Assembly: GCF_037902255.1 (NCBI RefSeq) | Contig: NZ_CP147990.1 | Coordinates: 780,001-812,000, forward strand | DNA length: 32,000 nt | Source of the DNA: Candidatus Electrothrix sp. GW3-4 | GTDB lineage: Bacteria; Desulfobacterota; Desulfobulbia; Desulfobulbales; Desulfobulbaceae | Direction of reading: 5' to 3' | Shown: positions 1,768 through 30,495 of the stretch, piece after piece | Position numbering within the stretch: the first letter of the stretch is position 1 | Layout of the letters: the number at the start of each line of letters is the position of its first letter | Position numbers and translations under genes: made by a program | The notes under the pieces: model-generated | Told to the model about the DNA's origin: nothing | The model's input: the letters and a program-made list of their open reading frames with translations, nothing else | Database searches by the model: none

Positions 1768-1967
1768 ATGAGTAGTTCACTCCAAAAGATACAGCCCCCC
1801 CTGCCATTCTGGCCTCAGCCACCTGGCCGGGCGGGCAGTGTGCAGAGCAGCGATTCGTTGACTCCTTCCGTATCGGTCGGGATCCGGCCTGTGCTCTATC
1901 CATATCCCTGATCCGGTGGTCAGTCGGGAGCACGCCGAGGTCGTGCTGCTGGCTGATAGCTGGTGGG
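1768..1967 (+). pseudogene. Degenerate duplicate of the 5' end of the FHA-SLT gene (copy of 6510-6720)
   Basis: 1796-1967 is near-identical by eye to 6551-6720 apart from a 2-nt indel (GTGCTCTATCC vs GTGCTATCC). Weaker similarity extends back to an ATG at 1768 (vs ATG 6510) with an ~11-nt deletion. The copy is frameshifted: reading from 1768 hits TGA near 1909. Confidence 0.8.
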
Positions 1968-3183: not shown

Positions 3184-3211
3184 CTGTATATTATTTCTTA
3201 ACAACAGAGAG

Positions 3212-3697
3212 TTGGCTTTGCCCCAAAAAAAACAAAAAGACACCGAAAGAAGTGTCAATGCTTATAACAATAGATGGATGAAAATTACTCCTGCTTCCAA
3301 GGAAGATATTGCTGCTGCTGAAGCGTATCTTGAGGTAGCATTTCCAGAAGACCTTGTAAAACTTTTTAAGTTATGCTCGGGAGGACGACCAGTTAAGAAT
3401 TACTATATAAGCTATGAAAATGATATCGAAGTAAGTATAGGCTACATACTCCCATTTAAGAAAGAATCAAAACGTTGGGATATACTAACAGAGTACGATT
3501 ATCTTTATACGCGATTTAATTTTCCAGCGGAACTGATTCCTTTTGCTATTGATGAGGGACATGCCAATTATTATTGTCTTAAGATGGAAACTGGTGAGGT
3601 AATTTATTACCTACATGATGAACCCGAAAATCGGGAAAAAAAACTTTCTAATTCCCTTTCAGTTTTTTTGAGGGGCTTAACTGAATGGCCATATTGA
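3212..3697 (+). CDS. SMI1/KNR4 (SUKH-1) family immunity protein
   Basis: Lies immediately downstream of the Rhs toxin tip. SUKH-like N-terminal motif ASKEDIAAAEAYLEVAFPEDLVKLFKLCSGG and C-terminal FAIDEGHANYYCL. AT-rich. The track start at 3212 is TTG; an in-frame ATG at 3278 (MKITPAS...) is an alternative start. Confidence 0.75.
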   Translation: MALPQKKQKDTERSVNAYNNRWMKITPASKEDIAAAEAYLEVAFPEDLVKLFKLCSGGRPVKNYYISYENDIEVSIGYILPFKKESKRWDILTEYDYLYTRFNFPAELIPFAIDEGHANYYCLKMETGEVIYYLHDEPENREKKLSNSLSVFLRGLTEWPY

Positions 3698-4022: not shown

Positions 4023-4259
4023 ATGAAAACAGTGACTATGCGGGTTGATGATGCGGTCTACCGGATGATAAAAACCGCAGCCGATGGGCAGAAGAGGAAC
4101 CTTTCCAACTTCATAGAATTTGCCGTGATGCAGTATCTTTCCTCTGCACAGTATGTCGATAATGATGAAATGGATGAAATACTCCGGGATACCGAGCTGG
4201 TACAGAATTTAAAGAACGGCATCAAAGAGCTTGAACAAGGAGAGTACACGCTTGTTTGA
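4023..4259 (+). CDS. Ribbon-helix-helix (CopG/ParD-like) antitoxin
   Basis: N-terminal RHH pattern MKTVTMRVDDAVYRMIKTAADGQKRNLSNFIEFAVMQYL. The 3' end overlaps the RelE/ParE toxin gene. Confidence 0.7.
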   Translation: MKTVTMRVDDAVYRMIKTAADGQKRNLSNFIEFAVMQYLSSAQYVDNDEMDEILRDTELVQNLKNGIKELEQGEYTLV

Positions 4260-4521
4260 GTTCAGAATTGCAGAGTCCAACAAATTTGAGAAACGCAAAA
4301 AGAAGATTGATCCGTCTCTGTATGCGAAGATAAAGAATATTGTGTATCCTCAGCTTCGAAAAAATCCCTATTTCGGAGCGAATATCAAAAAACTGAAAGG
4401 AGACCTCTCGGGATACTATCGCTTCAGGATTGGGAATTACCGCCTTTTTTATCTTATTGAGGAGGAAAAAGTGATTGTTGTTGTCGTGGATCTCCAGCAG
4501 CGGCAGAATGCCTATAAATAA
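4231..4521 (+). CDS. RelE/ParE family type II toxin
   Basis: IKKLKGDLSGYYRFRIGNYRLFYLIEEEKVIVVVVDLQQRQNAY is the typical RelE/ParE C-terminal core. Overlaps the antitoxin gene. The exact start is uncertain (TTG at 4231 or 4252). Confidence 0.8.
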   Translation: MNKESTRLFEFRIAESNKFEKRKKKIDPSLYAKIKNIVYPQLRKNPYFGANIKKLKGDLSGYYRFRIGNYRLFYLIEEEKVIVVVVDLQQRQNAYK

Positions 4522-4610
4522 TAAGGGACCTATATCAAACTGCAACCTGCCTGTTCTTCTTTTTCCCAAAAAAACGCTTATAATTTTAAACTGTTTAAGA
4601 GCTATCAAAA

Positions 4611-4817
4611 ATGAAAAAGAAGAACAAATCTAAAATATTCACTGAAGAAATGACTGCGACAATAAGAAAGGCCGTGAATAGCGCCCTGCTTCATCACAAG
4701 GCGGTCGGTAATAAAATTGCTTACTGGAGTGAGGGGCAAATCCAAGTCGAGGTGCCTAGGGAAACACAACTTCACATTGTAAAGACATCTCCTCTTCATC
4801 TTGATCGTATCAAATGA
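4611..4817 (+). CDS. Small hypothetical protein (68 aa)
   Basis: ORF only, with no recognisable motif and no clear ribosome-binding site. Its stop overlaps the ATG of the Rpn fragment (ATGA at 4814-4817), suggesting former coupling. Confidence 0.3.
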   Translation: MKKKNKSKIFTEEMTATIRKAVNSALLHHKAVGNKIAYWSEGQIQVEVPRETQLHIVKTSPLHLDRIK

Positions 4818-4915
4818 GAACCCTGCCCGATAAATACATCAACCTGTTTACGGACTTCGGCTTCAAAAAACTCTTCGGCACCGAGTTCAACAAACCGCTG
4901 CTGATCAACTTCCGC
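4814..4915 (+). pseudogene. N-terminal fragment of an Rpn/YhgA-like PD-(D/E)XK recombination-promoting nuclease (putative transposase)
   Basis: MRTLPDKYINLFTDFGFKKLFGTEFNKPLLINF matches the conserved N-terminus of the Rpn family as remembered. Similarity ends after ~33 codons, and the rest of track ORF 4814..5071 runs through the vapBC promoter region. Confidence 0.6.
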
Positions 4916-4957
4916 GCCTTTCCTTTTCCCGTTGATGCCGTATCTTCGGAGCGATCC

Positions 4958-4986
4958 TTGACAAATGCAAAGCCCAGGCATATGCT
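4958..4986 (+). promoter_or_regulatory. Candidate sigma70 promoter for vapBC
   Basis: TTGACA (4958-4963), a 17-nt spacer, then TATGCT (4981-4986), about 50 nt upstream of the vapB ATG at 5037. Confidence 0.35.
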
Positions 4987-5036
4987 TAGGTATATGTCAA
5001 TCACTCCAATTTTGATAAAAACAAAGGGAACTTTAT

Positions 5037-5273
5037 ATGCAGACAGAACGCCATGTCCGCCTGTTCCGTAACGGACGCAATCAGGCAATTCGTATTCCGC
5101 GTGAATTCGAGCTGGAAGGGAATGAGGCTGTTATCCGCAAAGAAGGCGGCAGGCTGATCATAGAACCGGTGATAAAAACGGGCTTAGCCACCCTGCTGGC
5201 CTCCTGGAAGCCGCTTGATGAGGATTTCCCGGAAATAGACGACGCTCCTGTCATACCGGAAGACATTTTCTGA
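5037..5273 (+). CDS. vapB: AbrB/SpoVT-fold antitoxin VapB
   Basis: VRLFRNGRNQAIRIPREFELEGNEAVIRKEGGRLIIEP is a typical SpoVT/AbrB swapped-hairpin antitoxin. It ends 1 nt before the PIN gene. Confidence 0.8.
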   Translation: MQTERHVRLFRNGRNQAIRIPREFELEGNEAVIRKEGGRLIIEPVIKTGLATLLASWKPLDEDFPEIDDAPVIPEDIF

Positions 5274-5274
5274 A

Positions 5275-5685
5275 ATGAGCGAGTACAGATACCTGCTGGA
5301 TACCAATATCCTTTCAGACCTGATAAAAAATCCCGCTGGCCCTGTCGCACAAAAGGTGATCAGTCCTCATATTGAACTGATCTGTTGCACCAATCTGATC
5401 GTCGCTTGTGAGCTGCGCTACGGCGCCTGTAAAAAAGGTTCTCCCCGCCTCACAGCAAGAGTCGAACAGCTTCTGAGCACCTTACCCGTGCTTCCCCTGG
5501 AGGAAGATGTTGCGCATCAGTACGGAGAGATCAGGACCGCCCTGGAGCGTGCCGGTCAGCCCATCGGGGGCAACGACCTGTTGATCGCTGCTCATGCCCT
5601 TACCCTGCGGCTGACTGTTGTCACCGCAAACCTGCGGGAATTTACTCGCGTTCCAGGGCTGGCGGTGGAAAATTGGCTGGAGTGA
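5275..5685 (+). CDS. vapC: PIN-domain toxin VapC
   Basis: N-terminal YLLDTNILSDL, plus later acidic residues (GNDLLIAAHA, VVTANLREF) in a typical PIN layout. Confidence 0.85.
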   Translation: MSEYRYLLDTNILSDLIKNPAGPVAQKVISPHIELICCTNLIVACELRYGACKKGSPRLTARVEQLLSTLPVLPLEEDVAHQYGEIRTALERAGQPIGGNDLLIAAHALTLRLTVVTANLREFTRVPGLAVENWLE

Positions 5686-5856: not shown

Positions 5857-6513
5857 ATGCGTTTTATGACCATAGAGGACATCATAACCCAGCACGCCGA
5901 AGATGCCGCCTTTCTCTGGCTCCTTCGTGACAGTGCTGTTTACGAACCCCACTACGACCTCAAGGACTTGGCGGAACTGGACAACCGCGTCGAAGCCCAC
6001 CTGGACGGCCTGCGCATTGCAGGCGACGTAGGCTGGGAAATCTGCAAAGACGCCCTGAGCTACCAAGAACCGGGCGAGGCCTTCTCCATAATCACCGGCC
6101 TGGATCTGGCCTATGAAGACCTGGAAGGCGAATGGCCCGAGGGCTTTGTTGCAGGCCCCAGCGAAGACCCGAAAGATGAAGACGTGGATCTGGACCCGGA
6201 TGAAGACCTGCCCTGGCCTGCACCTACCCTGATTACCCAGTGGTGGGGAGCGAATCAGGGGCGATTTTCCATCGGCACCCGCTATCTGGCAGGTCAACCA
6301 ATCGCTGCCGATCATCTCCGCCAGGTGCTGGTTACCGGTTTTCAACGGCAACGCGTTGCTGCGGCAATGGAACTGGCCCTGCTCAGGCCGGAACAGCCCC
6401 TCTTTGCCGTTCAGGGCACCGGGGTTCCGGCAGCAGGCACTGCTCGGGCTATAAAAAGACTTCTCATGCAATTGAACGAACACCCTTATTCTGATAAGCA
6501 GATCAGCGCATGA
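5857..6513 (+). CDS. TIGR02270-like protein, apparently lacking the central HEAT-repeat region
   Basis: N-terminus IITQHAEDAAFLWLLRDSAVYEPHYDLKDLAELDNRVEAHLDGLRIAGDVGW and C-terminus GTRYLAGQP...GFQRQRVAAAMELALLRPEQPLF resemble the TIGR02270 family from memory. At 218 aa it is much shorter than I recall for the family. Its stop overlaps the FHA gene start (ATGA at 6510-6513). Confidence 0.45.
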   Translation: MRFMTIEDIITQHAEDAAFLWLLRDSAVYEPHYDLKDLAELDNRVEAHLDGLRIAGDVGWEICKDALSYQEPGEAFSIITGLDLAYEDLEGEWPEGFVAGPSEDPKDEDVDLDPDEDLPWPAPTLITQWWGANQGRFSIGTRYLAGQPIAADHLRQVLVTGFQRQRVAAAMELALLRPEQPLFAVQGTGVPAAGTARAIKRLLMQLNEHPYSDKQISA

Positions 6514-8006
6514 CCTCCAGACCACATAAGAGCATACAGCATCCCGCATCTCCCCCTGCCATTCTGGCCTCAGCCACCTGGCCGGGCGGGCAGTGTGCAG
6601 AGCAGCGATTCGTTGACTCCTTCCGTATCGGTCGGGATCCGGCCTGTGCTATCCATATCCCTGATCCGGTGGTCAGTCGGGAGCACGCCGAGGTCGTGCT
6701 GCTGGCTGATAGCTGGTGGGTCCAGGATTGTAACAGCGCCAACGGTATCTGGTTGAACGGTCAGCAGGTGAACCGGGTAGCAATCAGCGAGCAGCTGCGG
6801 ATCGAGCTTGGGCGGGGTGGGCCCGTGCTGACTCTGTCCCCTCAGCAACCTGTTCTCCGGCAGGCAGAGGAGGCCGTCGCCGACACCATGTCCATGACCC
6901 ATTACCGGGAGCATTATTTCAGCGATAAGGACGACGGTGAGGCCGGGGAACACACCATGATGGTTCGACAGGCCTTTGCCCAGGTGAAGAAGAAGCAGCA
7001 GAGAACATACGGGGCCATTATCGCGGTTGTTGTCTGTCTCTTTTTCATGGCCGGTTCTGTGGCGGTGTATAAACATCTTCAGCTGCAAAAACAGCGAGAA
7101 CTCGCTGGTGAGATCTTCTATGCAATGAAGGAGCAGGAGATCGAATTTGCTGACCTCCTGCGGGCGGCCCGGGAAAGCGCAGATCCGGGAACCCGGGCCA
7201 AGGTGGAACAGTATAAACAGCGGGCCAGGGAGCTGGAAAACAGCTACACAGAATTTGTCGATACCCTGGGTATCTATGATAACAATATCAGTCCCCAGGA
7301 ACAGGCCATTCTGCGGACGGCCCGGATCTTCGGGGAATGCGAAGTCCTGGTGCCCGAGGATTTCACTGACGAGGTCATGCGCTATATCAAGAAATGGCAG
7401 TCAAGTCGTCGTTTCATCAAGGCCCTGGAGCGGGCTGAGGCGAATAACTATCCGGCGATTATCGCCCGGGCCCTGCGCCATTATTATCTGCCTCCGCAGT
7501 TTTTTTACCTGGCCCTGCAGGAAAGCAATTTCAACGTCAATGCTGTTGGCCCTGCAACCCGCTGGGGTATTGCCAAGGGGATGTGGCAGTTTATCCCGGA
7601 GACCGGTGCCCGCTACGGTCTCAGGATCGGTCCGCTTAAAGAAAAACGTGAGGTGGACCTTGGGGATGATCGGCATGATTTTGTCCGTTCAAGCGTGGCC
7701 GCAGCAAAGTACCTGCGGGATATCTACGACACCGATGCCCAGGCCTCTGGCCTGCTGGTCATGGCCTCCTATAACTGGGGGGAAAACCGGGTCATTCGTT
7801 TGGTCAAGGCCCTGCCAGCCAATCCCAGGGAACGGAATTTCTGGCAGTTTCTCAAAAAATATCGTAAAAAAATACCCAAGCAGACCTATGATTATGTCTT
7901 TTACATCTTTTCCGCAGCAGTGATCGGCGATAATCCGCGTCTCTTTGGTTTTGATCGTGATAATCCCCTTGATGACTCTGCGTTAATGGAAGAGCAGGGG
8001 CCTTAA
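6510..8006 (+). CDS. FHA domain - transmembrane helix - lytic transglycosylase (SLT) domain protein
   Basis: FHA: FRIGRDPACAIHIPDPVVSREHAEVVLLADSWWVQDCNSANGIWLNGQQV. TM helix: YGAIIAVVVCLFFMAGSVAVY. SLT: YLALQESNFNVNAVGPATRWGIAKGMWQFIPETGARYGL with the catalytic E-S motif, plus ASYNWGENRV. Confidence 0.85.
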   Translation: MTSRPHKSIQHPASPPAILASATWPGGQCAEQRFVDSFRIGRDPACAIHIPDPVVSREHAEVVLLADSWWVQDCNSANGIWLNGQQVNRVAISEQLRIELGRGGPVLTLSPQQPVLRQAEEAVADTMSMTHYREHYFSDKDDGEAGEHTMMVRQAFAQVKKKQQRTYGAIIAVVVCLFFMAGSVAVYKHLQLQKQRELAGEIFYAMKEQEIEFADLLRAARESADPGTRAKVEQYKQRARELENSYTEFVDTLGIYDNNISPQEQAILRTARIFGECEVLVPEDFTDEVMRYIKKWQSSRRFIKALERAEANNYPAIIARALRHYYLPPQFFYLALQESNFNVNAVGPATRWGIAKGMWQFIPETGARYGLRIGPLKEKREVDLGDDRHDFVRSSVAAAKYLRDIYDTDAQASGLLVMASYNWGENRVIRLVKALPANPRERNFWQFLKKYRKKIPKQTYDYVFYIFSAAVIGDNPRLFGFDRDNPLDDSALMEEQGP

Positions 8007-8943: not shown

Positions 8944-9705
8944 ATGAGCGAACTGAACATCCCCCGTACCGATCTGAATAATAAGGAGTTTCTTGAACTC
9001 CGGCAGGCCACGGATAAGATCGCTGGTCTGCTCAGTCAGCGTCTCAAGGGGCAGCTTGCCACCCTGCGTCCGCTCTTTATCCCCCGTAAACTGCTCGGGA
9101 CCTATATAAAGAGCTCTTCGCAGCAGGAGATTAATGGCTCGGACAAGGCCTTTGCTGAATTGCAGGAGCGCTACAGCGCTCTCTGTGAGGCCCCGTTTCA
9201 GCTCCCGAAAAAGCTCCATCCGCCCCTGCCCGCCATAGCCAATGCCCTGGAATGTGTTCCCCTCCAATATGAACTGGCCATCGAGGGGGAGCGCGCTGTT
9301 ACCGTCACCTCACCCACCCGTTTTCTCCTCGCCTATCAATGCGAGTGCCCCCTGGAACGGCTGCGGGGCATGGTCCTGGGCAGGGAAGCGCGTCAGGAAG
9401 AGGAGATGCGTCAGGCCCTGATCTCCCATCTGGCCCTGGTCCTGCTGCTGGAACATTTTCCGGCCCTGAAGACCCTGCTGGAGGACCTGCGCTATCAAGT
9501 GGATACCTACCTGCTTCCCGACCTTGGTAAGCTGCCCGCCGTCATGATCACCGTACCGCTGACCACCTTTCTGCCGCCGGATAGCTTTATCACCGAGGTG
9601 ACCCAGCTCTCCGGCATCCCGGCCTTTCAGGAGATTATCGCCGCTGATGCGGTCAGCAATATCCCGGATCTCTTGCAGCAGGAGCTGGAGGAACTGGTCG
9701 GCTGA
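8944..9705 (+). CDS. Hypothetical protein (253 aa)
   Basis: GAAAGGA ribosome-binding site and an uninterrupted frame with protein-like composition. No recognisable motif. Lies between the 8033 gene and cas6. Confidence 0.6.
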   Translation: MSELNIPRTDLNNKEFLELRQATDKIAGLLSQRLKGQLATLRPLFIPRKLLGTYIKSSSQQEINGSDKAFAELQERYSALCEAPFQLPKKLHPPLPAIANALECVPLQYELAIEGERAVTVTSPTRFLLAYQCECPLERLRGMVLGREARQEEEMRQALISHLALVLLLEHFPALKTLLEDLRYQVDTYLLPDLGKLPAVMITVPLTTFLPPDSFITEVTQLSGIPAFQEIIAADAVSNIPDLLQQELEELVG

Positions 9706-9814
9706 GCGCTGTTAGCAGGTCTCAGGGATATGGGGAGAGGATGGGGTGCTTTGACCATGCCGCCAGGGGCGGGGGCCGTGCAGCAGGCAGAGATGAGCGT
9801 TCTGAGCAGGGGAG

Positions 9815-10783
9815 ATGGGTTCTTCCCCATGCGAGGAAGATCCGATTGATCCGAGAACAGGCCAAGAAATCATGCACAGACTCCAGGGGGATCTCCAGAT
9901 CCTGACCATCGCCAAATATCTCTTTCGTCTCCGGGCGGAAACAACGATCCGGCTGCCGCCGGACAAGGGCAGCGCCTTTCACGGTGCCTTTGGCCACGCC
10001 CTGAAGCGTATCTCCCCCTTTTATTACCAAGAGATCTTTGCACCGGGCCATGACAGGGCCAAGCCCAAACCCTTTGTCCTCCTGCCCCCTCTGGAGAGCA
10101 AGGAACACTATGCTGCTGGCCAGCCGTTGCACTGTGAGCTGACCCTGTTCGGCAGGGCAGGGCAGTTTTTCCCGATCTGTCACGCAGCTGTGGAGTTTCT
10201 TGGCAGGGAGATGGGGCTGGGCCTGAACCGGGGAAAATTTACTGTTGAAGGCGTAGACAAGGCCTGCCCGTCAGGTAGCAATTCATCTGCGGATCCAGCT
10301 GCTCTTACCTGTCTGGAGATTGTGCAAACCTGTCCGATTCCGATCAGAAACGATTCCCTGACCATCCACCTGCCCACCCGCCTGCGCCTCAAAAGCGACG
10401 GCCATCTGCTCTCCCAGCCCCCGGAGTTTCACCTTTTTTTTGCCAGATTGGTCGGGCGGATCAATACCCTGTCCAGCCTGTACGGTGGTGGTAAGATGGT
10501 AGGACCGGAACAACGCCAACAGCTGCTCAGCCAGGCCCAGGAGCGCATCCGCCTGGATGCGCAGAGAACCGATGCCTGCTGGCAGGACCTGCCCCGTTTT
10601 TCCGGGCGCCAGCAGCAATGGATGAAATTCGGCGGCCTGCTCGGGTCTGTGACCTGGCAGGGGACGCCAGAGGACTTCCGGCCCTTTCTGCCCTATCTGG
10701 CCATTGGGGAGTGGATCCATGTGGGCGGCAAGAGCAGTTTTGGTTTGGGGAAGTATCTGGTTGAACGGCAAAGCGAAATTTGA
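9815..10783 (+). CDS. cas6: CRISPR pre-crRNA endoribonuclease Cas6 (RAMP)
   Basis: N-terminal RLPPDKGSAFHGAFGHALK and the C-terminal glycine-rich RAMP loop WIHVGGKSSFGLGKY. Lies directly upstream of the leader and array on the same strand. The true start may be the ATG at 9872 (MHRLQGDLQ...). Confidence 0.75.
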   Translation: MGSSPCEEDPIDPRTGQEIMHRLQGDLQILTIAKYLFRLRAETTIRLPPDKGSAFHGAFGHALKRISPFYYQEIFAPGHDRAKPKPFVLLPPLESKEHYAAGQPLHCELTLFGRAGQFFPICHAAVEFLGREMGLGLNRGKFTVEGVDKACPSGSNSSADPAALTCLEIVQTCPIPIRNDSLTIHLPTRLRLKSDGHLLSQPPEFHLFFARLVGRINTLSSLYGGGKMVGPEQRQQLLSQAQERIRLDAQRTDACWQDLPRFSGRQQQWMKFGGLLGSVTWQGTPEDFRPFLPYLAIGEWIHVGGKSSFGLGKYLVERQSEI

Positions 10784-11029
10784 CCTGTTCTGCGCTGCAA
10801 CGCTGCCTGGAAGGGCTGAAAAAATGCTTGGCAGAGGGCATGTTCCGGTTTACAGTGCAATTTGCGCGAACCTCTTTGGGACAGAAAAAGCCGGGAGGTT
10901 CGCGATGCCCACGGTATGGGGGATAGAGTGGAAAACAGGGGTTTGATGCGGCCTTTGTTGCCTGCTTTTGAGGAGGTTCGCGGAAAATGCGTTTTTTGTA
11001 GTGCGGAAACAGGGGATTGCAGGGCGACA
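10784..11029 (+). promoter_or_regulatory. CRISPR leader
   Basis: Noncoding stretch between cas6 and the first perfect repeat, with the degenerate repeat at the opposite end of the array. Contains GAGGTTCGCG twice in direct orientation (10895-10904, 10973-10982) and once inverted (10865-10874). Confidence 0.5.
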
Positions 11030-11980
11030 GTTGTCTTTTGACCGGTTTTGGAACGGGGTTACGACAGGTTGATACTTGTTAATTCAAGTCACGGTGTGAG
11101 GTTGTCTTTTGACCGGTTTTGGAACGGGGTTACGACCTCGACCATGATGTCCCTACACACCAGTTTGACGTTGTCTTTTGACCGGTTTTGGAACGGGGTT
11201 ACGACCCTTGATAAACATTCTCAATTCTTTAGATAAAGCAGTTGTCTTTTGACCGGTTTTGGAACGGGGTTACGACCCGTTACATATCAGTGCCCTGAGA
11301 GAGTTCTGACGTTGTCTTTTGACCGGTTTTGGAACGGGGTTACGACCCAGGCTCTCCCGCTCAGAGAGGGCCGCCTTACCTAGTTGTCTTTTGACCGGTT
11401 TTGGAACGGGGTTACGACCAGCTTGGCCCGTTGTTCCGAGCCGCCCGCTGTGTGTTGTCTTTTGACCGGTTTTGGAACGGGGTTACGACCCCGCCTCTCT
11501 TGGCGGCGTGATAATGGATACCGTTGTCTTTTGACCGGTTTTGGAACGGGGTTACGACCCAGGCTCTCCCGCTCAGAGAGGGCCGCCTTACCTAGTTGTC
11601 TTTTGACCGGTTTTGGAACGGGGTTACGACCAGCTTGGCCCGTTGTTCCGAGCCGCCCGCTGTGTGTTGTCTTTTGACCGGTTTTGGAACGGGGTTACGA
11701 CCAATAATTGGTTGGTGTTTCCCGATTCCAATAATGTTGTCTTTTGACCGGTTTTGGAACGGGGTTACGACTTTTGTTACCTCTGGATTATTTGCTCATT
11801 TACCGGTTGTCTTTTGACCGGTTTTGGAACGGGGTTACGACGATCGGGCCGATAGTCATAAAGACGTTGATACTAGTTGTCTTTTGACCGGTTTTGGAAC
11901 GGGGTTACGACTCAATACCTTCAAGTTTATCAAGAGCATGCTTTGTTGTCTTTTGACCGGTTTTGGAACGGGGTTATGAG
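11030..11980 (+). CRISPR. CRISPR array: 14 repeats of 36 nt (GTTGTCTTTTGACCGGTTTTGGAACGGGGTTACGAC), 13 spacers of 33-36 nt
   Basis: Repeat starts at 11030, 11101, 11170, 11241, 11311, 11383, 11454, 11523, 11595, 11666, 11736, 11806, 11876 and 11945. Repeats 1-13 are identical. The last repeat (11945-11980) ends TTATGAG instead of TTACGAC. Spacers 5 and 6 recur as spacers 8 and 9. Confidence 0.95.
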
Positions 11981-12061
11981 GTAGGGGCGGTACCTCTGTG
12001 TTCGCCCAATGTGTACCACAATCGAGGTTGTTCCAGGGAAGACACGCAGGTCTTCCCCTAC
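11981..12061 (+). other. Conserved post-repeat block, copy 1 (candidate structured RNA / 5' UTR element)
   Basis: GTAGGGGCGGTACCTCTGTGTTCGCCCAATGTGTACCACAATCGAGGTTGTTCCA-GGGAAGAC-acgcag-GTCTTCCC-CTAC directly abuts the terminal repeat. Near-identical copy at 14383-14463 and a diverged copy at 16723-16797. Confidence 0.6.
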
Positions 12062-12194
12062 ATGGTTTCCCGGATTACAACGGATTGTAGGGGCGATCCT
12101 TTTGATCGCCCATTGTGATCCTCCTTTGTCATCGACCATAATAGGAGGTTGACAGGGCAGGCACAGGGGCCTGCACCCTACAAAGAGAAAAAAT

Positions 12195-13886
12195 ATGAAA
12201 ATTCCTTACGGTATCAGTAATTTCAGATCTCTTATCACCGAGGGATATCTCTATGTCGATAAAACACCTTTCATAGCAACCCTGGAAGAGCAGGGAAAAT
12301 ACAACATCCTGCTCCGTCCCCGCCGTTTCGGCAAAACCCTCTTTCTCTCCACCCTCCGCTCGTATTATGACATCCTGTGCAAGGATGAATTTGAGTCCCT
12401 TTTCGGCCATCTCGTTATCGGTCAAAGGCCCACCCCGCTGAAAAACAGCTATCAGATTCTCGCCTTTGACTTCAGCGGTATTGAAACCAGCAGCGAAGAA
12501 GATATCCGGCGCGGGTTCAACCGCAGAGTGGAAACCGCCCTGAAAAAATTTCTTAGGCGTTATGGCTATCCTTTGGAAACGGATCGGATTATAGAAAAAC
12601 AGACCAGCCCTGCCGATAAAATAGATTATTTTTTCACAGTACTGGAAGAAGCGAATATCTACCTGCTCATTGATGAATACGACCATTTTGCCAACGCCAT
12701 CCTTGGTGAAAGCCTGGAACTGTTCAGCGCAATCGTGGGCAAGGGCGGCTTTGTCCGGGCCTTTTACGAAGTCATCAAGACCGCGACCATGGAGGGTATT
12801 GTTGATCGCCTCCTGATCACCGGGGTGACCTCTATTACTCTGGACAGCATGACCAGCGGTTTTAACATTGGCAAGAATCTTTCCTTTGCCCAGGAACTGA
12901 ATCAGGCAATGGGCTTTACTGCCCAGGAAACTGAAGCAATGGTGCAACCTCTTGTTGAGGTCTGCGGGTTGGATAAGCAGGAAATGATGCAGAACCTGGC
13001 GAATTGGTATAACGGCTACCGCTTCAGTAGTCGCGCCGCCGAGAAGGTGTTTAATCCAGACATGGTTCTGTATTTCCTTGATAGCTTTAATAAGGAGGGA
13101 TGCCTCTGGCCAGAGCAGATGCTGGATGACAACATTGCCTCGGATTACGGTAAGATCATGCGGCTGTTCGGGATCGGGGATCGGGAGAGCAATTTCCAGA
13201 TCCTTGAGGAACTGCTGGTCAACGGTGAAATTGTGGGACGGCATAAGGGCAAATTGGATCTGGATACGCACAAACCCTTTGAGCGTGACGACTTTATCAG
13301 TCTGCTCCTCTACATGGGCTTTATCACCATCAGCGGTACAATGCTTGGCCAGTTGCGTTATGTGGTGCCCAACTATGTGATTCAAAAGCTGTATTACGGC
13401 TATTTCAGGGCAGAAATTGAGCAGCGGGCCCAAATCAGGGTGGAGAAACATACCCTGGAAAATGCTGTGGCCGAACTGGCCCTGCACGATAATATCACTC
13501 CACTGCTTGAAGAGATCCGCAAGGTCCTGACCCTGTTTTCCAACCGTGATTTCATGCGCATGGATGAAAAACACATCAAGACTGTGATCCTGACCCTGCT
13601 GTATCAGTCCGAGGTCTATTTCATCCGCAGCGAGGCTGAAGTGAACAAGCGTTACCCGGATATCCTCCTGCTGGAGCGCAAGCCTATTGCGGTGCGCTAC
13701 CAGTTCCTCTTTGAGCTGAAGTTCAGCAAGAAAAAGGAGGGGGACAAGGGGCTGGAGGCAAAACGGGCCGAGGGGATTGCCCAGATCAGGGCCTATCAGG
13801 AGCTCGCCGATATCAGGCGTCTGCCCAAACTGCAATCCTACCTCCTGCTCACCGATGGCACCGAGATTGAAGCGATTGCAGTGTGA
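12195..13886 (+). CDS. AAA-ATPase-like / PD-(D/E)XK nuclease (PDDEXK_9, DUF1703-type) protein, paralog 1
   Basis: N-terminus MKIPYGISNFRSLITEGYLYVDKTPFI and the P-loop LRPRRFGKTLFLS. Walker B YLLIDEYD. C-terminal nuclease motif YPDILLL...FLFELKFSK (D...ExK). 563 aa. Confidence 0.85.
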   Translation: MKIPYGISNFRSLITEGYLYVDKTPFIATLEEQGKYNILLRPRRFGKTLFLSTLRSYYDILCKDEFESLFGHLVIGQRPTPLKNSYQILAFDFSGIETSSEEDIRRGFNRRVETALKKFLRRYGYPLETDRIIEKQTSPADKIDYFFTVLEEANIYLLIDEYDHFANAILGESLELFSAIVGKGGFVRAFYEVIKTATMEGIVDRLLITGVTSITLDSMTSGFNIGKNLSFAQELNQAMGFTAQETEAMVQPLVEVCGLDKQEMMQNLANWYNGYRFSSRAAEKVFNPDMVLYFLDSFNKEGCLWPEQMLDDNIASDYGKIMRLFGIGDRESNFQILEELLVNGEIVGRHKGKLDLDTHKPFERDDFISLLLYMGFITISGTMLGQLRYVVPNYVIQKLYYGYFRAEIEQRAQIRVEKHTLENAVAELALHDNITPLLEEIRKVLTLFSNRDFMRMDEKHIKTVILTLLYQSEVYFIRSEAEVNKRYPDILLLERKPIAVRYQFLFELKFSKKKEGDKGLEAKRAEGIAQIRAYQELADIRRLPKLQSYLLLTDGTEIEAIAV

Positions 13887-13941
13887 GGGACCAGGCAGCG
13901 TACCCCTTGACCCGGATTTCATCCTGCTGTACGATGAAATT

Positions 13942-14042
13942 TGATGACCTGGTAAAAAGTCAGAAATTAGCAAATCGCTAACGACAACTCAGTAAGTTAC
14001 AATACGAAATATCGCGAAATCGGACTTTTTACGAATCCATCA
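13942..14042 (+). mobile_element. 101-bp MITE-like element with ~20-bp imperfect terminal inverted repeats
   Basis: Ends are TGATGACCTGGTAAAAAGTC ... GACTTTTTACGAATCCATCA. It is absent from the otherwise collinear paralogous site (16318-16330: GATGAAATTTGTCGTTTG). Flanked by AATT/AAATT on both sides. Second copy at 18466-18567. Confidence 0.7.
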
Positions 14043-14345
14043 AATTTGTTGTTTGCAGAGGCGGGCGTTGAAAAACGGCTGAAATGGCGAAAAAATAAAA
14101 GATGAATAAAATCAATAACCACGGCTCGTAAGTAAGAGTGGGGATGAAAAAGGAGGAAAAACAAGGAAAGTATTGTATGTTTAACAGGTTACGCGAAAGT
14201 GGGAGGTCGTTATGGGCCGCACATTGATTTCATTGAGAAAAATGGAATTTTTCAGGGTTTGGAGAGCGTCGGGGAGTCGTCGAAGCGGCATGAGCCGCAA
14301 ATGGCCATCTAGGTATCCGATTTCATTAAGCGAAAAAAGGGTACT

Positions 14346-14382
14346 GTTGTGGACTTGACCGGTTTTGGAACGGGGTTACGAG
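14346..14382 (+). repeat. Solitary degenerate CRISPR repeat (no spacers)
   Basis: GTTGTGGACTTGACCGGTTTTGGAACGGGGTTACGAG compared with the array repeat: the 3' 27 nt are intact except the last base, and the 5' part has CTTT changed to GGACT. It shares the ...GAG end with the degenerate terminal repeat of the array and is followed by the same conserved block. Confidence 0.8.
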
Positions 14383-14463
14383 GTAGGGGCGGTACTTCTG
14401 TGTTCGCCCAATGTGTACCACAATCGAGATTGTTCCAGGGAAGACACGCAGGTCTTCCCCTAC
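14383..14463 (+). other. Conserved post-repeat block, copy 2
   Basis: Near-identical to 11981-12061 with a few substitutions (TACTTCTG vs TACCTCTG; GAGATTG vs GAGGTTG). Same GGGAAGAC/GTCTTCCC hairpin. Confidence 0.6.
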
Positions 14464-14578
14464 ATTATTTCCCGGATTATAACGGTGTTCAGGGGCAACC
14501 TGTATTGAACGAAAAACGAGTCCCCCAAAAGCCCTGAAGGGGCTGTATCTATTAGCGAGGGGTAAGGTCCTGGTTTTC

Positions 14579-16270
14579 ATGAAAATACCGTACGGAGAAA
14601 GCAATTTTAAAAAAATCATCACCCAGGGGTTTCTCTATATTGATAAAACATCTTTCATAGAAACCCTGGAGCAGAACGGCAGCTACAACATCCTGCTCCG
14701 TCCCCGCCGTTTCGGCAAAACCCTCTTTCTCTCTACCCTCCGCTCGTATTACGACATCCGCTGCAAGGATGAATTTGAGTCCCTTTTCGGCCAGCTCGTT
14801 ATCGGTCAAAGGCCCACCCCGCTGAAAAACAGCTATCAGATTCTCGCCTTTGACTTCAGCGGTATTGAAACCAGCAGCGAAGAAGATATCCGGCGCGGGT
14901 TCAACCGCAGAGTGGAAACCGCCCTGAAAAAATTTCTCAGGCGTTATGGCTATCCTTTGGAAACGGATCGGATTATAGAAAAACAGACCAGCCCTGCCGA
15001 TAAAATAGATTATTTTTTCACAGTACTGGAAGAAGCGAATATCTACCTGCTCATTGATGAATACGACCATTTTGCCAACGCCATCCTTGGTGAAAGCCTG
15101 GAGCTCTTCTCTGCTATCGTGGGTAAGGGCGGCTTTGTCCGGGCCTTTTACGAAGTCATCAAGACCGCGACCATGGAGGGCATTGTTGATCGTCTCCTGA
15201 TCACCGGCGTGACCTCCATCACCCTGGACAGTATGACCAGCGGCTTTAACATCGGCGACAACATTACCTATCATCAGGATTTCAATCAGGCAATGGGCTT
15301 TACTGCCCAGGAAACCGAGGAGATGATCCAGCCCTTTGTCGAGGTCTGCGAGCTGAATCAGCAGGAGGTGATGCAGACCCTGGCGAATTGGTATAACGGT
15401 TACCGTTTCAGCAGCCGGGCAGAGGAAAAGATTTTCAATCCTGACATGGTCTTGTATTTTCTCAGATCTTTTGATTCGGTCGAATGCCGTTGGCCAGAGC
15501 GGATGCTGGACGATAATATCGCCTCGGATTACGGCAAGATCATGCGGCTGTTCGGGATCGGGGATCGGGAAGGCAATTTTGCCATCCTTGAAGAGTTACT
15601 GGTCAATGGGGAGATCATCGGGCACCATAAGGGCAGGCTTGATCTGGATACGCACAAACCCTTTGAGCGTGACGATTTTATCAGTCTGCTCCTCTATATG
15701 GGCTTTATCACTATCAATGATACTGTGCTGGCCGATTTGCGCTACCGTGTGCCAAATTATGTGATTGAACAGCTCTATTATCGTTACTTCAAAACAGAAA
15801 TTGAACTTCGATCGCAAGTCACCCTGGATAATGGCCGCCTGAAAGAAGCTGTCAGGCAACTTGCCCTGCACGATAATATCACTCCACTGCTTGAAGAGAT
15901 CCGCAAGGTCCTGGCCCTGTTCTCCAACCGTGACTTCATGCGCATGGATGAAAAGCACATCAAGGCCGTGATCCTGACCCTGCTGTATCAGTCCGAGGTC
16001 TATTTCATCCGCAGCGAGGCTGAAGTGAACAAGCGTTACCCGGATATCCTCCTGCTGGAGCGCAAGCCTATTGCGGTGCGCTACCAGTTCCTCTTTGAGC
16101 TGAAGTTCAGCAAGAAAAAGGAGGGGGACAAGGGGCTGGAGGCAAAACGGGCCGAGGGGATTGCCCAGATCAGGGCCTATCAGGAGCTCGCCGATATCAG
16201 GCGTCTGCCCAAACTGCAATCCTACCTCCTGCTCACCGATGGCATCGAGATTGAAGCGATTGCGGTGTGA
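14579..16270 (+). CDS. AAA-ATPase-like / PD-(D/E)XK nuclease (PDDEXK_9-type) protein, paralog 2
   Basis: Same length (563 aa) and same motifs as paralog 1. Residues ~36-226 and ~441-563 are nearly identical to paralog 1, while residues 1-35 and ~227-440 are diverged. Confidence 0.85.
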   Translation: MKIPYGESNFKKIITQGFLYIDKTSFIETLEQNGSYNILLRPRRFGKTLFLSTLRSYYDIRCKDEFESLFGQLVIGQRPTPLKNSYQILAFDFSGIETSSEEDIRRGFNRRVETALKKFLRRYGYPLETDRIIEKQTSPADKIDYFFTVLEEANIYLLIDEYDHFANAILGESLELFSAIVGKGGFVRAFYEVIKTATMEGIVDRLLITGVTSITLDSMTSGFNIGDNITYHQDFNQAMGFTAQETEEMIQPFVEVCELNQQEVMQTLANWYNGYRFSSRAEEKIFNPDMVLYFLRSFDSVECRWPERMLDDNIASDYGKIMRLFGIGDREGNFAILEELLVNGEIIGHHKGRLDLDTHKPFERDDFISLLLYMGFITINDTVLADLRYRVPNYVIEQLYYRYFKTEIELRSQVTLDNGRLKEAVRQLALHDNITPLLEEIRKVLALFSNRDFMRMDEKHIKAVILTLLYQSEVYFIRSEAEVNKRYPDILLLERKPIAVRYQFLFELKFSKKKEGDKGLEAKRAEGIAQIRAYQELADIRRLPKLQSYLLLTDGIEIEAIAV

Positions 16271-16624
16271 TGGACCAGGCAGCGTACCCCTTGACCCGGA
16301 TTTCATCCTGCTGTACGATGAAATTTGTCGTTTGTACAAGCAGGCGCCGGAAAGTGGTTAAAATGGTCAAAAATAAAAAGCTGAATAATATCAATTACCA
16401 CGGCCCGTCCGGGTAAATGGATTTGAAAAAGGAGGGGAAGTAGGGAAAACAACGTATGTTTAATGTGTTACGCGAATAATGGAGGTCGTTATGGGCCGCA
16501 CATTGATTTCATTGGGAAAAACGGGATTTTTCAGGGTTTGGAACGCGTCGGGGAGTCGTCGAAGCGGCATGGGCCGCAAATGGGTATGTAGGTCTCTGAT
16601 TTCGCTTTGTGAAAAAGGGGTAGA

Positions 16625-16661
16625 GGTGTCGACTTGACCGGTTTTGGAACTGGGTTAGGAC
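16625..16661 (+). repeat. Second solitary, more degenerate CRISPR repeat-like sequence
   Basis: GGTGTCGACTTGACCGGTTTTGGAACTGGGTTAGGAC retains the TTGACCGGTTTTGGAAC core. It is preceded by the same leader-like sequence as the 14346 copy. Confidence 0.6.
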
Positions 16662-16722
16662 GGAGGGGCGACCGGCGGTCGCCCTTTGCCGGTGTACGGA
16701 GGCATGACGATTCCGTGATGTT

Positions 16723-16797
16723 GTAGGCCGGACCTCTGTGTCCGCCCAATATGTACCACAACCGAGGTGATTCAGGGCACGGCACGCCGTTCCCTTA
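16723..16797 (+). other. Conserved post-repeat block, copy 3 (diverged)
   Basis: GTAGGCCGGACCTCTGTGTCCGCCCAATATGTACCACAACCGAGGTGATTCA-GGGCACGG-cacg-CCGTTCCC-TTAC. It is separated from the repeat-like sequence by a 62-nt insertion carrying its own hairpin (GGGCGACCGgcGGTCGCCC). Confidence 0.5.
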
Positions 16798-16988
16798 CGA
16801 GATCCGTCCCTCTGCCCGTTAGATGCACCAGGGTGTTACCCTTTACTGATGTGTATCCCCCCTTTGGGGTTTGGTGCCAGCTCGAACCCGTGGTGCTCTG
16901 TATCAGGCGGAAAACGAAAGAAAAAGCCCCAGAGGGGCTGTATATATCTAGCCCAGGGTAACGCCCTGGATGTCCTAAGGAGGAGACG

Positions 16989-17474
16989 ATGATCGAACTG
17001 GAAACCGGTGACCCTTGGAACGGAGAAAATAAACCCGCTTCTTTCTCCCGATTTCTTCTTCCCTTTTCCTACACCCTGAACCCGGCCAATCCTGCTGCGG
17101 TCAAATCGGATCAGCTCTGCTTTCGGCAAATCCAACCGAAAAAAGACTTTGAGCGGGAACGTCTCCTTTATTTCACCGCAGAAACGGCCAACGTGCTCTT
17201 TCAACGGGCAATCTGGGCCGAGATTGACGCGGATTTCTGGCAGAATGCGGGATTGAGCGGTCCCTTCTCTTTTCAATCTGTTAACCGTAATACTGAACAG
17301 CCGATTAAGGTCGCTCTGACCCCACCCCGGTTAGTCCTCTTTGAAGGATGCTCGGAAAACCCTTCTCTTCATCCGACCCTTTGTCACGGTTTTCTCATTC
17401 TGGATACCTTCTTTCCTGATATTTGTCTTTCAGGTGAGCGTCCCGGCTTGGATGACGTCCGATCAGCGTCATGA
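16989..17474 (+). CDS. Hypothetical protein (161 aa), probably the 3'-truncated N-terminal part of a larger protein
   Basis: Strong ribosome-binding site (AAGGAGGAGACG-ATG) and no recognisable motif. The ORF ends exactly where base composition switches to the AT-rich cassette (~17470). Confidence 0.5.
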   Translation: MIELETGDPWNGENKPASFSRFLLPFSYTLNPANPAAVKSDQLCFRQIQPKKDFERERLLYFTAETANVLFQRAIWAEIDADFWQNAGLSGPFSFQSVNRNTEQPIKVALTPPRLVLFEGCSENPSLHPTLCHGFLILDTFFPDICLSGERPGLDDVRSAS

Positions 17475-17556: not shown

Positions 17557-18399
17557 ATGAAAGAATTTGACAGCTACTATTCCGCACTTTTCAGTCAATC
17601 GAACCGTATTTACTCTGTACGATACACTCTGTTAACCGTCACAATCGCCTGCCTTTTATATTCAGTTGTTGCTCGTGGATATTATTTGTACATAGCAACT
17701 GTTTCCGCTTTGCTGTTTCAAATAATTTCTTGGTATCTGAAAGTAAGAATAGAAAATATTCGATACCTTGCTAATGAGTTTCAAAAGTTTGACATACTGT
17801 ATTGTGCATATGGAAAAATTCCGAGTGAATTTCATCTCTCACATTTAAAAGCAATGGTTAGCGGAAAAATTTTTTCTGACGTTGAGAAAAAAATGAAAAA
17901 TGATGATGTTGGAGGGAAATATTATTCCGATAATATTGACATCCCAAGAGAAAAACTCTTCTCAATGATTCATGAAAACTGTTACTGGAATCATTACCTC
18001 TATAAATACGTCTTCTTTCTATTTGCCACTGGAATTGCTTTGATTTCATCTTGTTTTGTTGTCTCGTCTTTTTTTGCTTTTCCGTTAATAAAAATTGATC
18101 CAGAATATACAGTCCCAAGACTGGCCTTTACCTTTTTGTCGCTTTTCCTCGTGTATGAGCTTCTTGAAAAAGCAAAAAACAGCTATGTTTCTTCCAGGAT
18201 AATGCTTGAAATTGACAATGAACTAACAAGGTCAAGAGGAGATATTTCAGAGGTAAACCTTTTGAAAATATTTAATCAGTATTGCAATGTCAAGGAGTCA
18301 GCACCGGATATTCCCGGTTTTCTTTACAAAAGAAATAAGGGAAAATTGAATGACGGCTGGAAAAGCCGGGTTCTCAAAATGCCTGACGATACCATTTAA
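17557..18399 (+). CDS. Four-TM membrane protein, possibly an S-4TM-type pore-forming effector
   Basis: Two helix pairs (YTLLTVTIACLLYSVVA / YLYIATVSALLFQIISWYL and YVFFLFATGIALISSCFVVSSFFAF / RLAFTFLSLFLVYELL) separated by a ~90-aa soluble linker, plus an ~80-aa soluble tail. Strongly AT-rich relative to its flanks. The S-4TM assignment rests on architecture only. Confidence 0.6.
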   Translation: MKEFDSYYSALFSQSNRIYSVRYTLLTVTIACLLYSVVARGYYLYIATVSALLFQIISWYLKVRIENIRYLANEFQKFDILYCAYGKIPSEFHLSHLKAMVSGKIFSDVEKKMKNDDVGGKYYSDNIDIPREKLFSMIHENCYWNHYLYKYVFFLFATGIALISSCFVVSSFFAFPLIKIDPEYTVPRLAFTFLSLFLVYELLEKAKNSYVSSRIMLEIDNELTRSRGDISEVNLLKIFNQYCNVKESAPDIPGFLYKRNKGKLNDGWKSRVLKMPDDTI

Positions 18400-18465
18400 G
18401 TTTTTGTTGTCTGTGCCGAACAGGAAAACATGTGACGGAGAAAAATAATGGAAAAAAATGAATTT

Positions 18466-18567
18466 TGATGGTTTCGTAAAAAGTCCAATTTTGCGAAAAA
18501 GTCGTATTGTAACTCGTTGAGTTGCCGTTAGCGAATTGCTGTTTTCTGACTTTTTACCAGGTCATCA
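18466..18567 (-). mobile_element. Second copy of the MITE-like element, inverted relative to 13942-14042
   Basis: TGATGGTTTCGTAAAAAGTC ... GACTTTTTACCAGGTCATCA. It aligns end to end with the reverse complement of the first copy with scattered substitutions. AT-rich flanks (AATTT / ATTTT). Confidence 0.7.
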
Positions 18568-18610
18568 ATTTTGGTTTACCCACATGAAACAGCGAGGAGC
18601 CGAAAAATAG

Positions 18611-18871
<261 letters not shown>

Positions 18872-30393: not shown

Positions 30394-30495
30394 ATATTTC
30401 CTCCTCGATAGAAAAAAACAGGGTGGGTTGATACCGGAAAAGGTGAAACTCCTGCTTGTCTGAATACGCCTGGGTAACCACCTCATGAAAATAAA

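Follow-up and report, generated by a model that had tools for sequence, protein, structure and literature searches.

Zero-spacer array stubs, REP trailers and an amplified ATPase gene in a probable decaying type III/RT-Cas1 CRISPR-Cas locus of Candidatus Electrothrix sp. GW3-4

We analyzed a 32-kb window of the genome of Candidatus Electrothrix sp. GW3-4 (the window being the whole stretch of DNA considered, 32,000 nucleotides [nt] long) together with related loci and metagenome stretches. The window carries a CRISPR array and, behind it, an arrangement that recurs: a leader-like sequence, a single CRISPR repeat and a conserved block of about 80 nt, placed in front of protein-coding genes. An earlier note on this DNA had described the arrangement as a 5' module shared by three non-cas genes. 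The repeated architecture is real: the ~80-nt block lies downstream of two solitary repeats (14346-14382; 16625-16661) as well as of the array's terminal repeat, and every part lies on the + strand like the array, as the note had said. Judging from the sequence comparisons set out below, this "module" is best described as the leader and one leftover repeat of a second array type, followed by a repetitive extragenic palindromic (REP) element. Features are on the + strand unless stated otherwise.

The sole intact cas gene of the window is cas6 (9815-10783; Pfam CRISPR_Cas6, 6e-15; PADLOC Cas6, 3e-67). Its product is 72% identical to the Cas6 of locus L005, from Ca. E. aarhusensis. The gene is followed by leader L1 of array 1 (10784-11029, 246 nt), which is 87% identical to positions 3966-4181 of L005, the leader of the Cas6-side array there, and which in blastn searches matches L1 copies only. 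Within L1 lies a promoter-like TTGGCA-17-TACAGT (10828-10856), a consensus match kept in L005 and in L004, a locus from another Electrothrix species. Array 1 itself (11030-11980) consists of 14 perfect or near-perfect 36-nt repeats, GTTGTCTTTTGACCGGTTTTGGAACGGGGTTACGAC, and 13 spacers; its terminal repeat (11945-11980) is degenerate at the 3' end, with GTTATGAG in place of GTTACGAC. The 17-nt core TTGACCGGTTTTGGAAC occurs 16 times in the window, always on the + strand (14 copies in the array, the others at 14355 and 16634), against a chance expectation of 0.01. An exact 181-nt duplication inside the array (11310-11490 = 11522-11702, with a period of 212 nt) has doubled two spacers with their repeats and is a further sign of repeat-to-repeat recombination. 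The repeats fold no better than shuffled sequences (z about 0), and thus the conserved core is not a stable Cas6 hairpin.

Beyond the array come, in order, a first copy of the block (A), an ATPase gene, a cas2 remnant, a second leader, repeat and block (unit B), a paralogous ATPase gene, another cas2 remnant, a third leader-repeat-block set (unit C) and a gene stub. For comparison, a search of species-representative genomes with the first ATPase yielded 80 loci, the nearest from Electrothrix and other Desulfobulbaceae at 63-81% identity, and the repeat core was present in 4 of these 80 (L003, L004, L005 and L007). The metagenomic relative L203 was located via a homolog of the third gene (16989-17474), and L205 and L206 via RT-Cas1 (reverse transcriptase-Cas1) homologs.

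The approximately 300 nt that precede each solitary repeat (14043-14345 and 16326-16624) are conserved between the two copies, as first noticed in the note, and are 78% identical. The further proposal that they resemble the true leader fails: local scores of 19-21 compare with a shuffle mean of 18 and maxima of 26-27, and 67 and 166 of 500 shuffles score equal to or better than the real alignments with L1 (10784-11029). A partial fourth copy proposed at 18400-18610 likewise falls within the range of shuffles (19-280 of 500). Rather, both stretches appear to be the genuine leader, here called L2, of a second type of array that in relatives stands beside RT-Cas1-Cas2. L2-B (14055-14345) matches the L2 sequences of L005, L203 (three copies), L004, L205 and L206 by blastn with E values of 1e-6 to 1e-22. 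L2-C (16317-16624), in which the leader-repeat junction is intact, belongs to the same leader family and matches an L2' copy of L203 at 7e-45, L004 at 1e-41 and L005 at 1e-28. In the relatives, L2 homologs lie directly upstream of the first repeat in L005 (9295-9605), L203 (three copies), L205 (two) and L206 (two), with E values of 1e-6 to 7e-45.

The gene order in these relatives shows what such a leader normally heads. The L005 locus runs from cas6 through L1, array 1, three REP units, an ATPase gene, a partial repeat with REP, RT-Cas1 and two Cas2 genes to an L2 of about 300 nt and array 2, whose repeat is GGTGTCGAGTTGACCGGTTTTGGAACGGGGTTACGAC. L203 carries L2 three times, once heading 14 repeats and twice heading repeat-spacer-repeat, and L205 and L206 each have two L2-type leaders with real arrays. 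The idea that the array was born from the 5' region of a gene is contradicted by the real arrays that L2 heads beside RT-Cas1-Cas2 in five other loci. The L205 (8150-9000 and 12680-13500) and L206 (8500-9700 and 12700-13057) arrays belong to more distant Desulfobulbaceae type III-B (Cmr)+RT-Cas1 two-array loci. They are built from the repeat GTTGCGGAGTTGACCGGTTTTGGAACGGGGTTAAAAC, and each terminal copy is decayed 3'-terminally, with no REP after it.

An open reading frame (ORF) of 45-48 codons lies within L2 (14202-14357 and 16481-16636 in the window), with a GGAGG and ATG start, and ends at a TGA in the first repeat (TTGACC). It is open in six of seven L2 copies. As a candidate coding sequence we rejected it: variable columns are not biased toward any codon position (18/22/19; chi-square p = 0.80), and the frame is interrupted in one functional leader, so it is probably not coding.

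The solitary repeats point to the same array type. Two repeat types, R1 and R2, share their 3' 28 nt, and the R2 consensus, GGTGTCGA(C/G)TTGACCGGTTTTGGAACGGGGTTACGAC, forms arrays of at least 4 repeats in L005 and of 14 repeats in L203. Repeat C (16625-16661) is of the R2 type, with 2 mismatches to GGTGTCGACTTGACCGGTTTTGGAACGGGGTTACGAC. Repeat B (14346-14382) has 3 mismatches to R2; its 5' part is R2-type and its 3' end, ...GAG, is that of the array 1 terminal repeat. The leader-repeat junction of B, gggtactGTTGYGGA, resembles those of L205 and L206. We found no second repeat within 2.2 kb of B or C, so neither amounts to a two-repeat CRISPR array. Because L2 heads real arrays and the repeats of B and C are R2-type, units B and C are best read as L2 arrays shrunk to zero spacers. 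A counterpart with one spacer left is seen in L203 (17656-18116), where L2 is followed by repeat-spacer-repeat, REP and ATPase. The cores of the solitary repeats are not specially conserved: L2 contains runs of 34 and 27 nt, longer than the exact 20-nt run that the two repeats share, and the probability of a longest run of at least 20 nt is 0.43.

In adaptation assays in E. coli and other organisms, no unit smaller than a leader with one repeat is known to take up spacers. Units B and C share that layout of a leader and then a single repeat and differ in that their repeats are mutated and the GW3-4 locus has no cas1 or cas2; for both reasons we regard them as relics and not as naive arrays.

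The block that follows each repeat has a different origin. It appears to be a GTAG-tagged REP dimer, similar to the elements called REPINs: a GTAG followed by a GGGCG..CGCCC hairpin, a short TTTGCACCACAAYCGAGG-type spacer and an inverted second hairpin that ends in CCCCTAC. Block A (11981-12061) opens with GTAGGGGCG and its hairpin and closes with the hairpin and CCCCTAC. Block B (14383-14463) is 97% identical to it over 67 nt and 92% over 114 nt, and in unit C a short-stem REP (16662-16684) and a spacer precede block C, itself a REP dimer (16723-16798); the whole spans 16662-16798. The recurrence of the block noted earlier is thus genuine, at 92-97% identity to A in copy B and about 72-79% in copy C. 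The inverted-dimer arrangement is present at 11981-12061, 14383-14463 and 16723-16798. Individual elements carry a GTAG or GGAG tag and an imperfect palindrome of 20-40 bp (GTAGGGGCGGTACCTCTGTGTTCGCCC; GTAGGGGAAGACCTGCGTGTCTTCCC, on the - strand; GGAGGGGCGACCGGCGGTCGCCC), and the stems vary between copies in compensatory fashion. A second REP-dimer-like unit (12087-12181) follows block A and ends about 14 nt 5' of the start codon of the first ATPase; one of its arms matches L012 6398-6426, a non-CRISPR site.

Published GTAG REPs are tagged and often occur as inverted dimers (PMC3733652). The present elements agree with GTAG REPs and REPINs (Di Nocera et al. 2013, PMC3733652; Bertels & Rainey 2011, PMC3116915) in their unpaired GTAG, 20-27-nt imperfect palindrome, inverted dimers able to make a long hairpin, and intergenic placement at many unrelated sites. 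They differ in that here one subfamily sits at the exact spacer position after terminal CRISPR repeats and moves with them. Members of the same family occur at non-CRISPR sites, including the argF-argG spacer of L011, L012 and L013, L012 6399, L013 14387 and L008 1026. The arm pattern GTAGGGGCRRACCTNNGTGTYYGCCC was found in at least 120 metagenome stretches, and an inverted partner was close by for 27 of 102 arms at such loci. We rejected a general link between this REP family and CRISPR: the repeat core was found in 0 of 80 fetched metagenome REP loci, and only one of these has any array, 2 kb away. No RAYT gene is present in the window.

At the Electrothrix-type loci, trailers homologous to block A follow the terminal repeats in L005, L004 and L203, and the REP begins exactly after the last base of the repeat at nine junctions in four genomes. 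There is no REP behind the arrays of L205 and L206. We read these junctions as one ancestral repeat-REP junction that would have been spread by recombination. In copy C, the earlier note had seen a 62-nt insertion between repeat and block. The extra segment exists (61 nt, GGAGGGGCGACCGGCGGTCGCCC...), but because L004, L005 and L203 also carry this GTAGGGGCGACCGGCGGTCGCCC unit behind the repeat, it does not look like an insertion. It is better read as an ancestral further REP unit, and its presence in those three loci suggests that copies A and B lost it. In several Electrothrix-type loci, the REP dimer that takes up the spacer position behind a terminal repeat could serve as a terminator or stabilizer of the CRISPR RNA (crRNA) precursor.

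The two ATPase genes behind blocks A and B both encode 563 residues with an AAA-ATPase_like domain (PF09820) and a PDDEXK_9 nuclease domain (PF08011), in agreement with the AAA-ATPase/PD-(D/E)XK description given earlier. ATPase1 (12195-13886; Pfam 6e-53 and 1e-11) has an a-type N-terminus, 88% identical to that of L004a, whereas its paralog ATPase2 (14579-16270) has a b-type N-terminus and is a mosaic of old and gene-converted tracts. The N-terminal types pair across species, ATPase1 with L004a and ATPase2 with L004b. Along the genes, identity and synonymous divergence (dS) alternate: 77% and 0.66 over nt 1-120, 96-100% and 0.09 over nt 121-600, 73-82% and 0.86 over nt 601-1320, and 95-100% and 0.06 from nt 1321 to the end. 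The dS of 0.66-0.86 in the unconverted segments implies that the duplication is not recent. The ratio of nonsynonymous to synonymous divergence (dN/dS) of 0.12-0.31 indicates purifying selection on both genes. We interpret the paralogs as an old pair patched by gene conversion, and the near-identical ATPase tracts, the cas2 stubs (98%) and blocks A and B (92-97%) as the converted patches.

The junction of unit B points to how the pair arose. It is chimeric: L2 and the 5' end of the repeat are as in C, and the derived ...GAG end of the repeat and the block are as in A. With direct copies of repeat plus REP at A, B and C, this is the signature expected when the repeat+REP behind array 1 crosses over unequally with the one behind L2, and recombination between co-oriented arrays is the likeliest origin of the module. 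Segmental duplication by unequal crossing-over with gene conversion is a general mechanism, with the same direct repeats at the ends, chimeric middle junction and mosaic identity. What differs here is that the recombining repeats are the CRISPR repeat+REP junctions of two different arrays.

The arrangement is shared with other species. L004 reads Cas6, short L1, one repeat, REP, ATPase_a, cas2 stub, L2, one intact R2, REP, inverted element and ATPase_b, and the L007 layout is similar. Both share the ATPase/cas2-stub junction with GW3-4. That junction was formed in the window by about 45 nt of the 3' end of cas2 lying after each ATPase stop, which we take to mean that RT-Cas1-Cas2-Cas2 was deleted. 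The first remnant (13888-13932), fused just after the ATPase1 stop, aligns to L203 2802-2863 and is 98% identical to the second (16272-16316); more broadly, the second cas2 of L203 can be aligned, at its 3' end, to window positions 13871-13940, where the stop TAA has become TAC. The deletion would have run from a short homology just past the ATPase stop (GGACC...) to cas2. None of the 120 best-scoring RT-Cas1 homologs listed lies on a contig the size of that of GW3-4 (4.64 Mb), which is weak evidence that it lacks this adaptation module.

The third gene behind the recurring arrangement is itself CRISPR-associated, contrary to the description of all three as non-cas genes. It is a 5' stub (16989-17474; about 157 codons in a 161-codon ORF) of a type III CRISPR-associated CorA-like gene and is 82% identical to L203 8434-8883, which opens a CorA-Cas10-Cas7/Cas5 operon. 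In L203 the stub homolog is followed by an overlapping ORF matching PADLOC CorA (1e-37), then by Cas10 (1e-26), several III-D-type Cas7/Csm3/Csm4-like genes and a WDGH-domain protein, and the overlap suggests that the two ORFs were originally one gene. Protein P0003 bridges them: it matches the window protein over residues 1-157 (76% identical) and covers the CorA-like ORF as well. The window gene has no direct profile match of its own, and its homology to CorA is N-terminal only. Like the type III CorA effector described by Chi et al. (2023, PMC10600005), the L203 homolog stands with a Cas10/Cas7/Cas5 operon, which it heads; the window keeps only the first ~157 codons, and activity is not expected. 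PDDEXK_2 fragments lie just 5' of CorA in L203 (7975-8434).

Downstream of the stub, the WDGH-domain gene (18611-18871), which in L203 closes the type III operon, is 5'-truncated, with its first ~17 codons gone. About 8.5 kb of effector genes thus appear to have been lost between CorA codon ~157 and WDGH, and an S_4TM effector-like gene and a miniature inverted-repeat transposable element (MITE) are found there instead. The GW3-4 locus is without spacer-acquisition and effector genes.

Taken together, these observations make it highly probable that the locus is a decaying, rearranged type III/RT-Cas1 CRISPR-Cas system with zero-spacer array stubs, REP trailers and an ATPase gene amplified via array recombination. 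The less decayed relatives suggest a starting point in which a Cas6-side L1 array was co-oriented with one or more L2 arrays beside RT-Cas1-Cas2-Cas2 and the CorA-Cas10-Cas7/Cas5 operon. From there, a short-homology deletion would first have brought the region of the ATPase stop up against the final ~45 nt of cas2, removing RT-Cas1-Cas2, and the L2 arrays would have been reduced to one repeat. Unequal recombination of the repeat+REP after array 1 with that after L2 would then have duplicated the segment from REP through ATPase and cas2 stub to L2, creating junction B. Repeated gene conversion would have patched the ATPase paralogs and their flanks, and finally the effector operon would have been lost from CorA codon ~157 to the WDGH gene, where the S_4TM gene and MITE now lie.

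What remains may still be transcribed. REPs elsewhere act as terminators or stabilizers. In GW3-4 the leader promoters probably still give rise to transcripts that read through repeat and REP hairpins and reach ATPase2 or the CorA stub. Such transcripts may be cut by the intact Cas6, and the REP hairpins may terminate or stabilize them, roles also described for REPs in PMC3733652. Cas6 processing of array-linked transcripts is conceivable. It is nonetheless likely that the units have no dedicated function beyond such residual promoter, terminator or stabilizer effects of leader and REP; the case is one of intricate yet ordinary locus decay and not a new regulatory device.

Several observations weigh against so plain a history. 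L2 with a single repeat and REP before an ATPase is kept in at least two to three species (the window, L004 and L007), more than would be expected of pure junk, and the CRISPR-linked ATPases of the window, L003, L004, L005 and L203 all have repeat+REP upstream. In those copies that lack an additional inserted element, only about 15-20 nt separate the end of the REP from the ATPase start, with no obvious promoter of the gene's own, so the ATPases may depend on array or leader transcription. Conservation of L2 is much stronger in its center (14202-14292) than to either side. The 92-97% identity of blocks A and B could also be counted here, although a gene-conversion tract explains it equally well. 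Moreover, L004 and L007 are contigs of short-read metagenome-assembled genomes (MAGs) in which arrays may be assembly-collapsed, and the order of events given above is a reconstruction from sequence relationships.

One alternative is an exapted expression module, in which the L2 promoter, repeat and REP serve as a 5' module for the ATPases, and formerly for CorA, with Cas6 cleavage coupling the genes to CRISPR expression. Co-orientation with an intact cas6, repeat+REP upstream of CRISPR-linked ATPase starts in four genomes (abutting them where no extra element intervenes), a layout preserved across species and purifying selection on both ATPases would all fit, as would a promoter-like TTGACC-17-TACGAT at the cas2-stub/L2 boundary of both units and of L004. 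However, the promoter matches are matches to consensus only, and the solitary repeats carry 2-3 mismatches and are conserved no better than the leader. ATPase homologs, moreover, are mostly not CRISPR-linked: among the 80 genomic loci only L005 and L049 (with its array 9 kb off) have arrays, on which ground we rejected a general link between the family and CRISPR arrays. Close paralogs also stand behind argG or in tandem with no repeat. We consider this explanation unlikely, and a selected role as an expression module seems to us quite doubtful. The broader version, in which cable bacteria keep leader, single repeat and REP dimer as a portable 5' expression and processing module, with the ATPase (and CorA) expressed from leader promoters and Cas6 releasing or stabilizing the transcripts, strikes us as similarly improbable. 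If it were true, the ATPase would be an accessory specific to this lineage, with its dosage governed by amplification through the arrays. In L006, a Desulfobulbaceae MAG, two tandem ATPase paralogs lie about 70 nt apart (9700-10003) with no CRISPR repeat between them, and amplification of the ATPase family thus does not need the module.

Another possibility is that the ATPases are mobile cassettes, REP-ATPase-repeat units that enter CRISPR repeats by some dedicated means, for instance a RAYT acting on the GTAG REP or the Cas1 integrase acting on the repeats. These bacteria have multiple copies of the ATPase family, every repeat/GTAG junction is exact, and in L203, L005 and L003 the gene is bracketed by repeat+REP, its stop being immediately followed by a nearly full or partial R2 and REP. 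But all junctions are homologous over long flanks, as expected of homologous recombination and inheritance and not of independent insertion, the window has no transposase or integrase, REP copies elsewhere lack a consistent repeat-end-like flank, and ATPase tandems exist without repeats. We therefore find this very unlikely. The suggestion of a cassette-like hotspot holds as a description, in that L2, repeat and REP precede ATPase, CorA, RT-Cas1 and other genes, depending on the genome. As a mechanism it is not needed, because homologous recombination and deletions between repeat+REP copies suffice, and no integron-like integrase or recombinase is found among the scanned ORFs of the window.

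The earlier note had also raised a crRNA-like regulator of the CreA or scaRNA kind. Under such CreA, scaRNA or mini-array logic, repeat and block would be processed into a guide that partly pairs with a promoter or transcript and represses it. A repeat-derived sequence followed by a conserved non-spacer sequence is what such a regulator would look like, and type I, II and V-A systems offer precedents. Yet the best complementary sites in the 32-kb window reach 20-21 of 36 ungapped positions against a shuffle mean of 21, the block pattern has no match in viral contigs, and the "pseudo-spacer" is a generic REP hairpin of unrelated sites. Moreover, the effector genes are gone from the locus, none of blocks A, B and C has a second (psi) repeat behind it, and Shmakov et al. 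report no conserved or targeted mini-arrays in type III loci. We regard this reading as highly improbable. What the locus has in common with CreA/CreTA, tracr-L/scaRNA and other crRNA-like regulators is an RNA element that derives from a repeat, carries a non-spacer "guide" and lies within a CRISPR locus; it differs from them in lacking a partially complementary target in the window, a toxin partner, a psi-repeat and an effector.

A plain, recent tandem duplication of 2.3-2.4 kb, specific to GW3-4 and decaying neutrally, would account for the period of 2279-2402 nt, the chimeric junction B and the near-identical tracts. Of the five readings offered in the note it comes closest, and the duplication and the capture of the terminal repeat stand. 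That it was plain or recent does not, given the dS of the unconverted segments, the 78% identity of L2-B and L2-C, and the tandem layout and N-terminal types common to L004. In that form it is scarcely tenable. Finally, an assembly artefact in which real arrays collapsed to one repeat is barely credible: metagenome arrays are often mis-assembled and L004 and L007 are MAG contigs, but the window lies in a 4.64-Mb contig, repeats B and C are individually degenerate and unlike each other, and an independent Logan contig, L001, is 100% identical across repeat C and its junction.

Our preferred reading of decay and recombination is in line with what is known of mini-arrays next to type III systems, which look like degraded repeats, and with the recombinogenic nature of repeats (Shmakov et al. 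2023, bioRxiv 10.1101/2023.03.03.530964). The standalone repeats of that study are likewise repeat-like sequences near but outside an array, have no detectable target and are explained by degradation and the tendency of repeats to recombine. In contrast, the solitary repeats described here keep a full leader of ~300 nt, their position is common to at least two species, and the units have been amplified with a protein-coding gene. An apparently designed 5' module can thus arise when two co-oriented arrays recombine, genes for adaptation and effectors are deleted and REPs hitch-hike along. For annotators, leader-plus-one-repeat stubs, the 45-nt cas2 remnant and the CorA stub are easily mistaken for new regulatory elements or genes. 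A multicopy ATPase/nuclease family has also become embedded in arrays and amplified along with them. This embedding and the spacer position of the REPs would be more interesting if functional; nothing here requires function.

Other small elements lie among these features. A 118-nt MITE (13937-14054) stands at the start of L2-B, is absent from copy C and has an inverted second copy (18454-18572, - strand) between the S_4TM gene and the WDGH remnant. The element has internal terminal inverted repeats and flanks AAATTTG/AATTTTG, and the first copy splits the boundary between cas2 stub and L2-B. The hairpin that the note had placed before the starts at 14579 and 16989 is real and belongs to a dispersed element of ~40 nt with the pattern GCCCC..GGGGCTGTATATA..CAGGGTAACACCCTG. 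It is single in unit B (14527-14570; GCCC..GGGGCTGTAT...GGGTAA...CCTGG), with copies in L003, L004 and L006, and forms an inverted, MITE-like pair in unit C (16811-16986), where a long hairpin (z -5.7) covers the Shine-Dalgarno sequence of the next gene; the same structure is seen in L004 (2619-2766). Copies of the pattern also lie at L003 85-126 and at L006 3870-3915 and 4796-4847, the latter two being non-CRISPR sites. Rfam at gathering thresholds gave zero matches in the window.

The S_4TM effector-like gene (17557-18399; PADLOC 4TM effector, 1e-10) matches Pfam S_4TM at 1.4e-5, with 25.0 bits falling below the 26.9-bit gathering cut-off. It is low in GC and stands in place of the deleted type III effector operon, with no cyclase or partner gene seen adjacent. 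In L203, a YhgA/Rpn-like PD-(D/E)XK protein (4317-5303) lies between the array-2 trailer and the next L2, with a weak match to Pfam Transposase_31 (3.4e-4, 20.7 bits, below the 21-bit cut-off). Elsewhere in the window, an RHS-repeat protein with a C-terminal WHH/colicin-DNase nuclease domain is followed by a SUKH-1 immunity gene (1963-3697). Near it are genes for DUF3540 (319-1275), ParE-like (4231-4521), PIN (5275-5685), TIGR02270-family (5857-6513) and FHA-SLT (6510-8006) proteins. At 29055-29244, two tandem copies of a 95-nt unit (92% identity) overlap a minus-strand ORF (29134-30486) at its 3' end.

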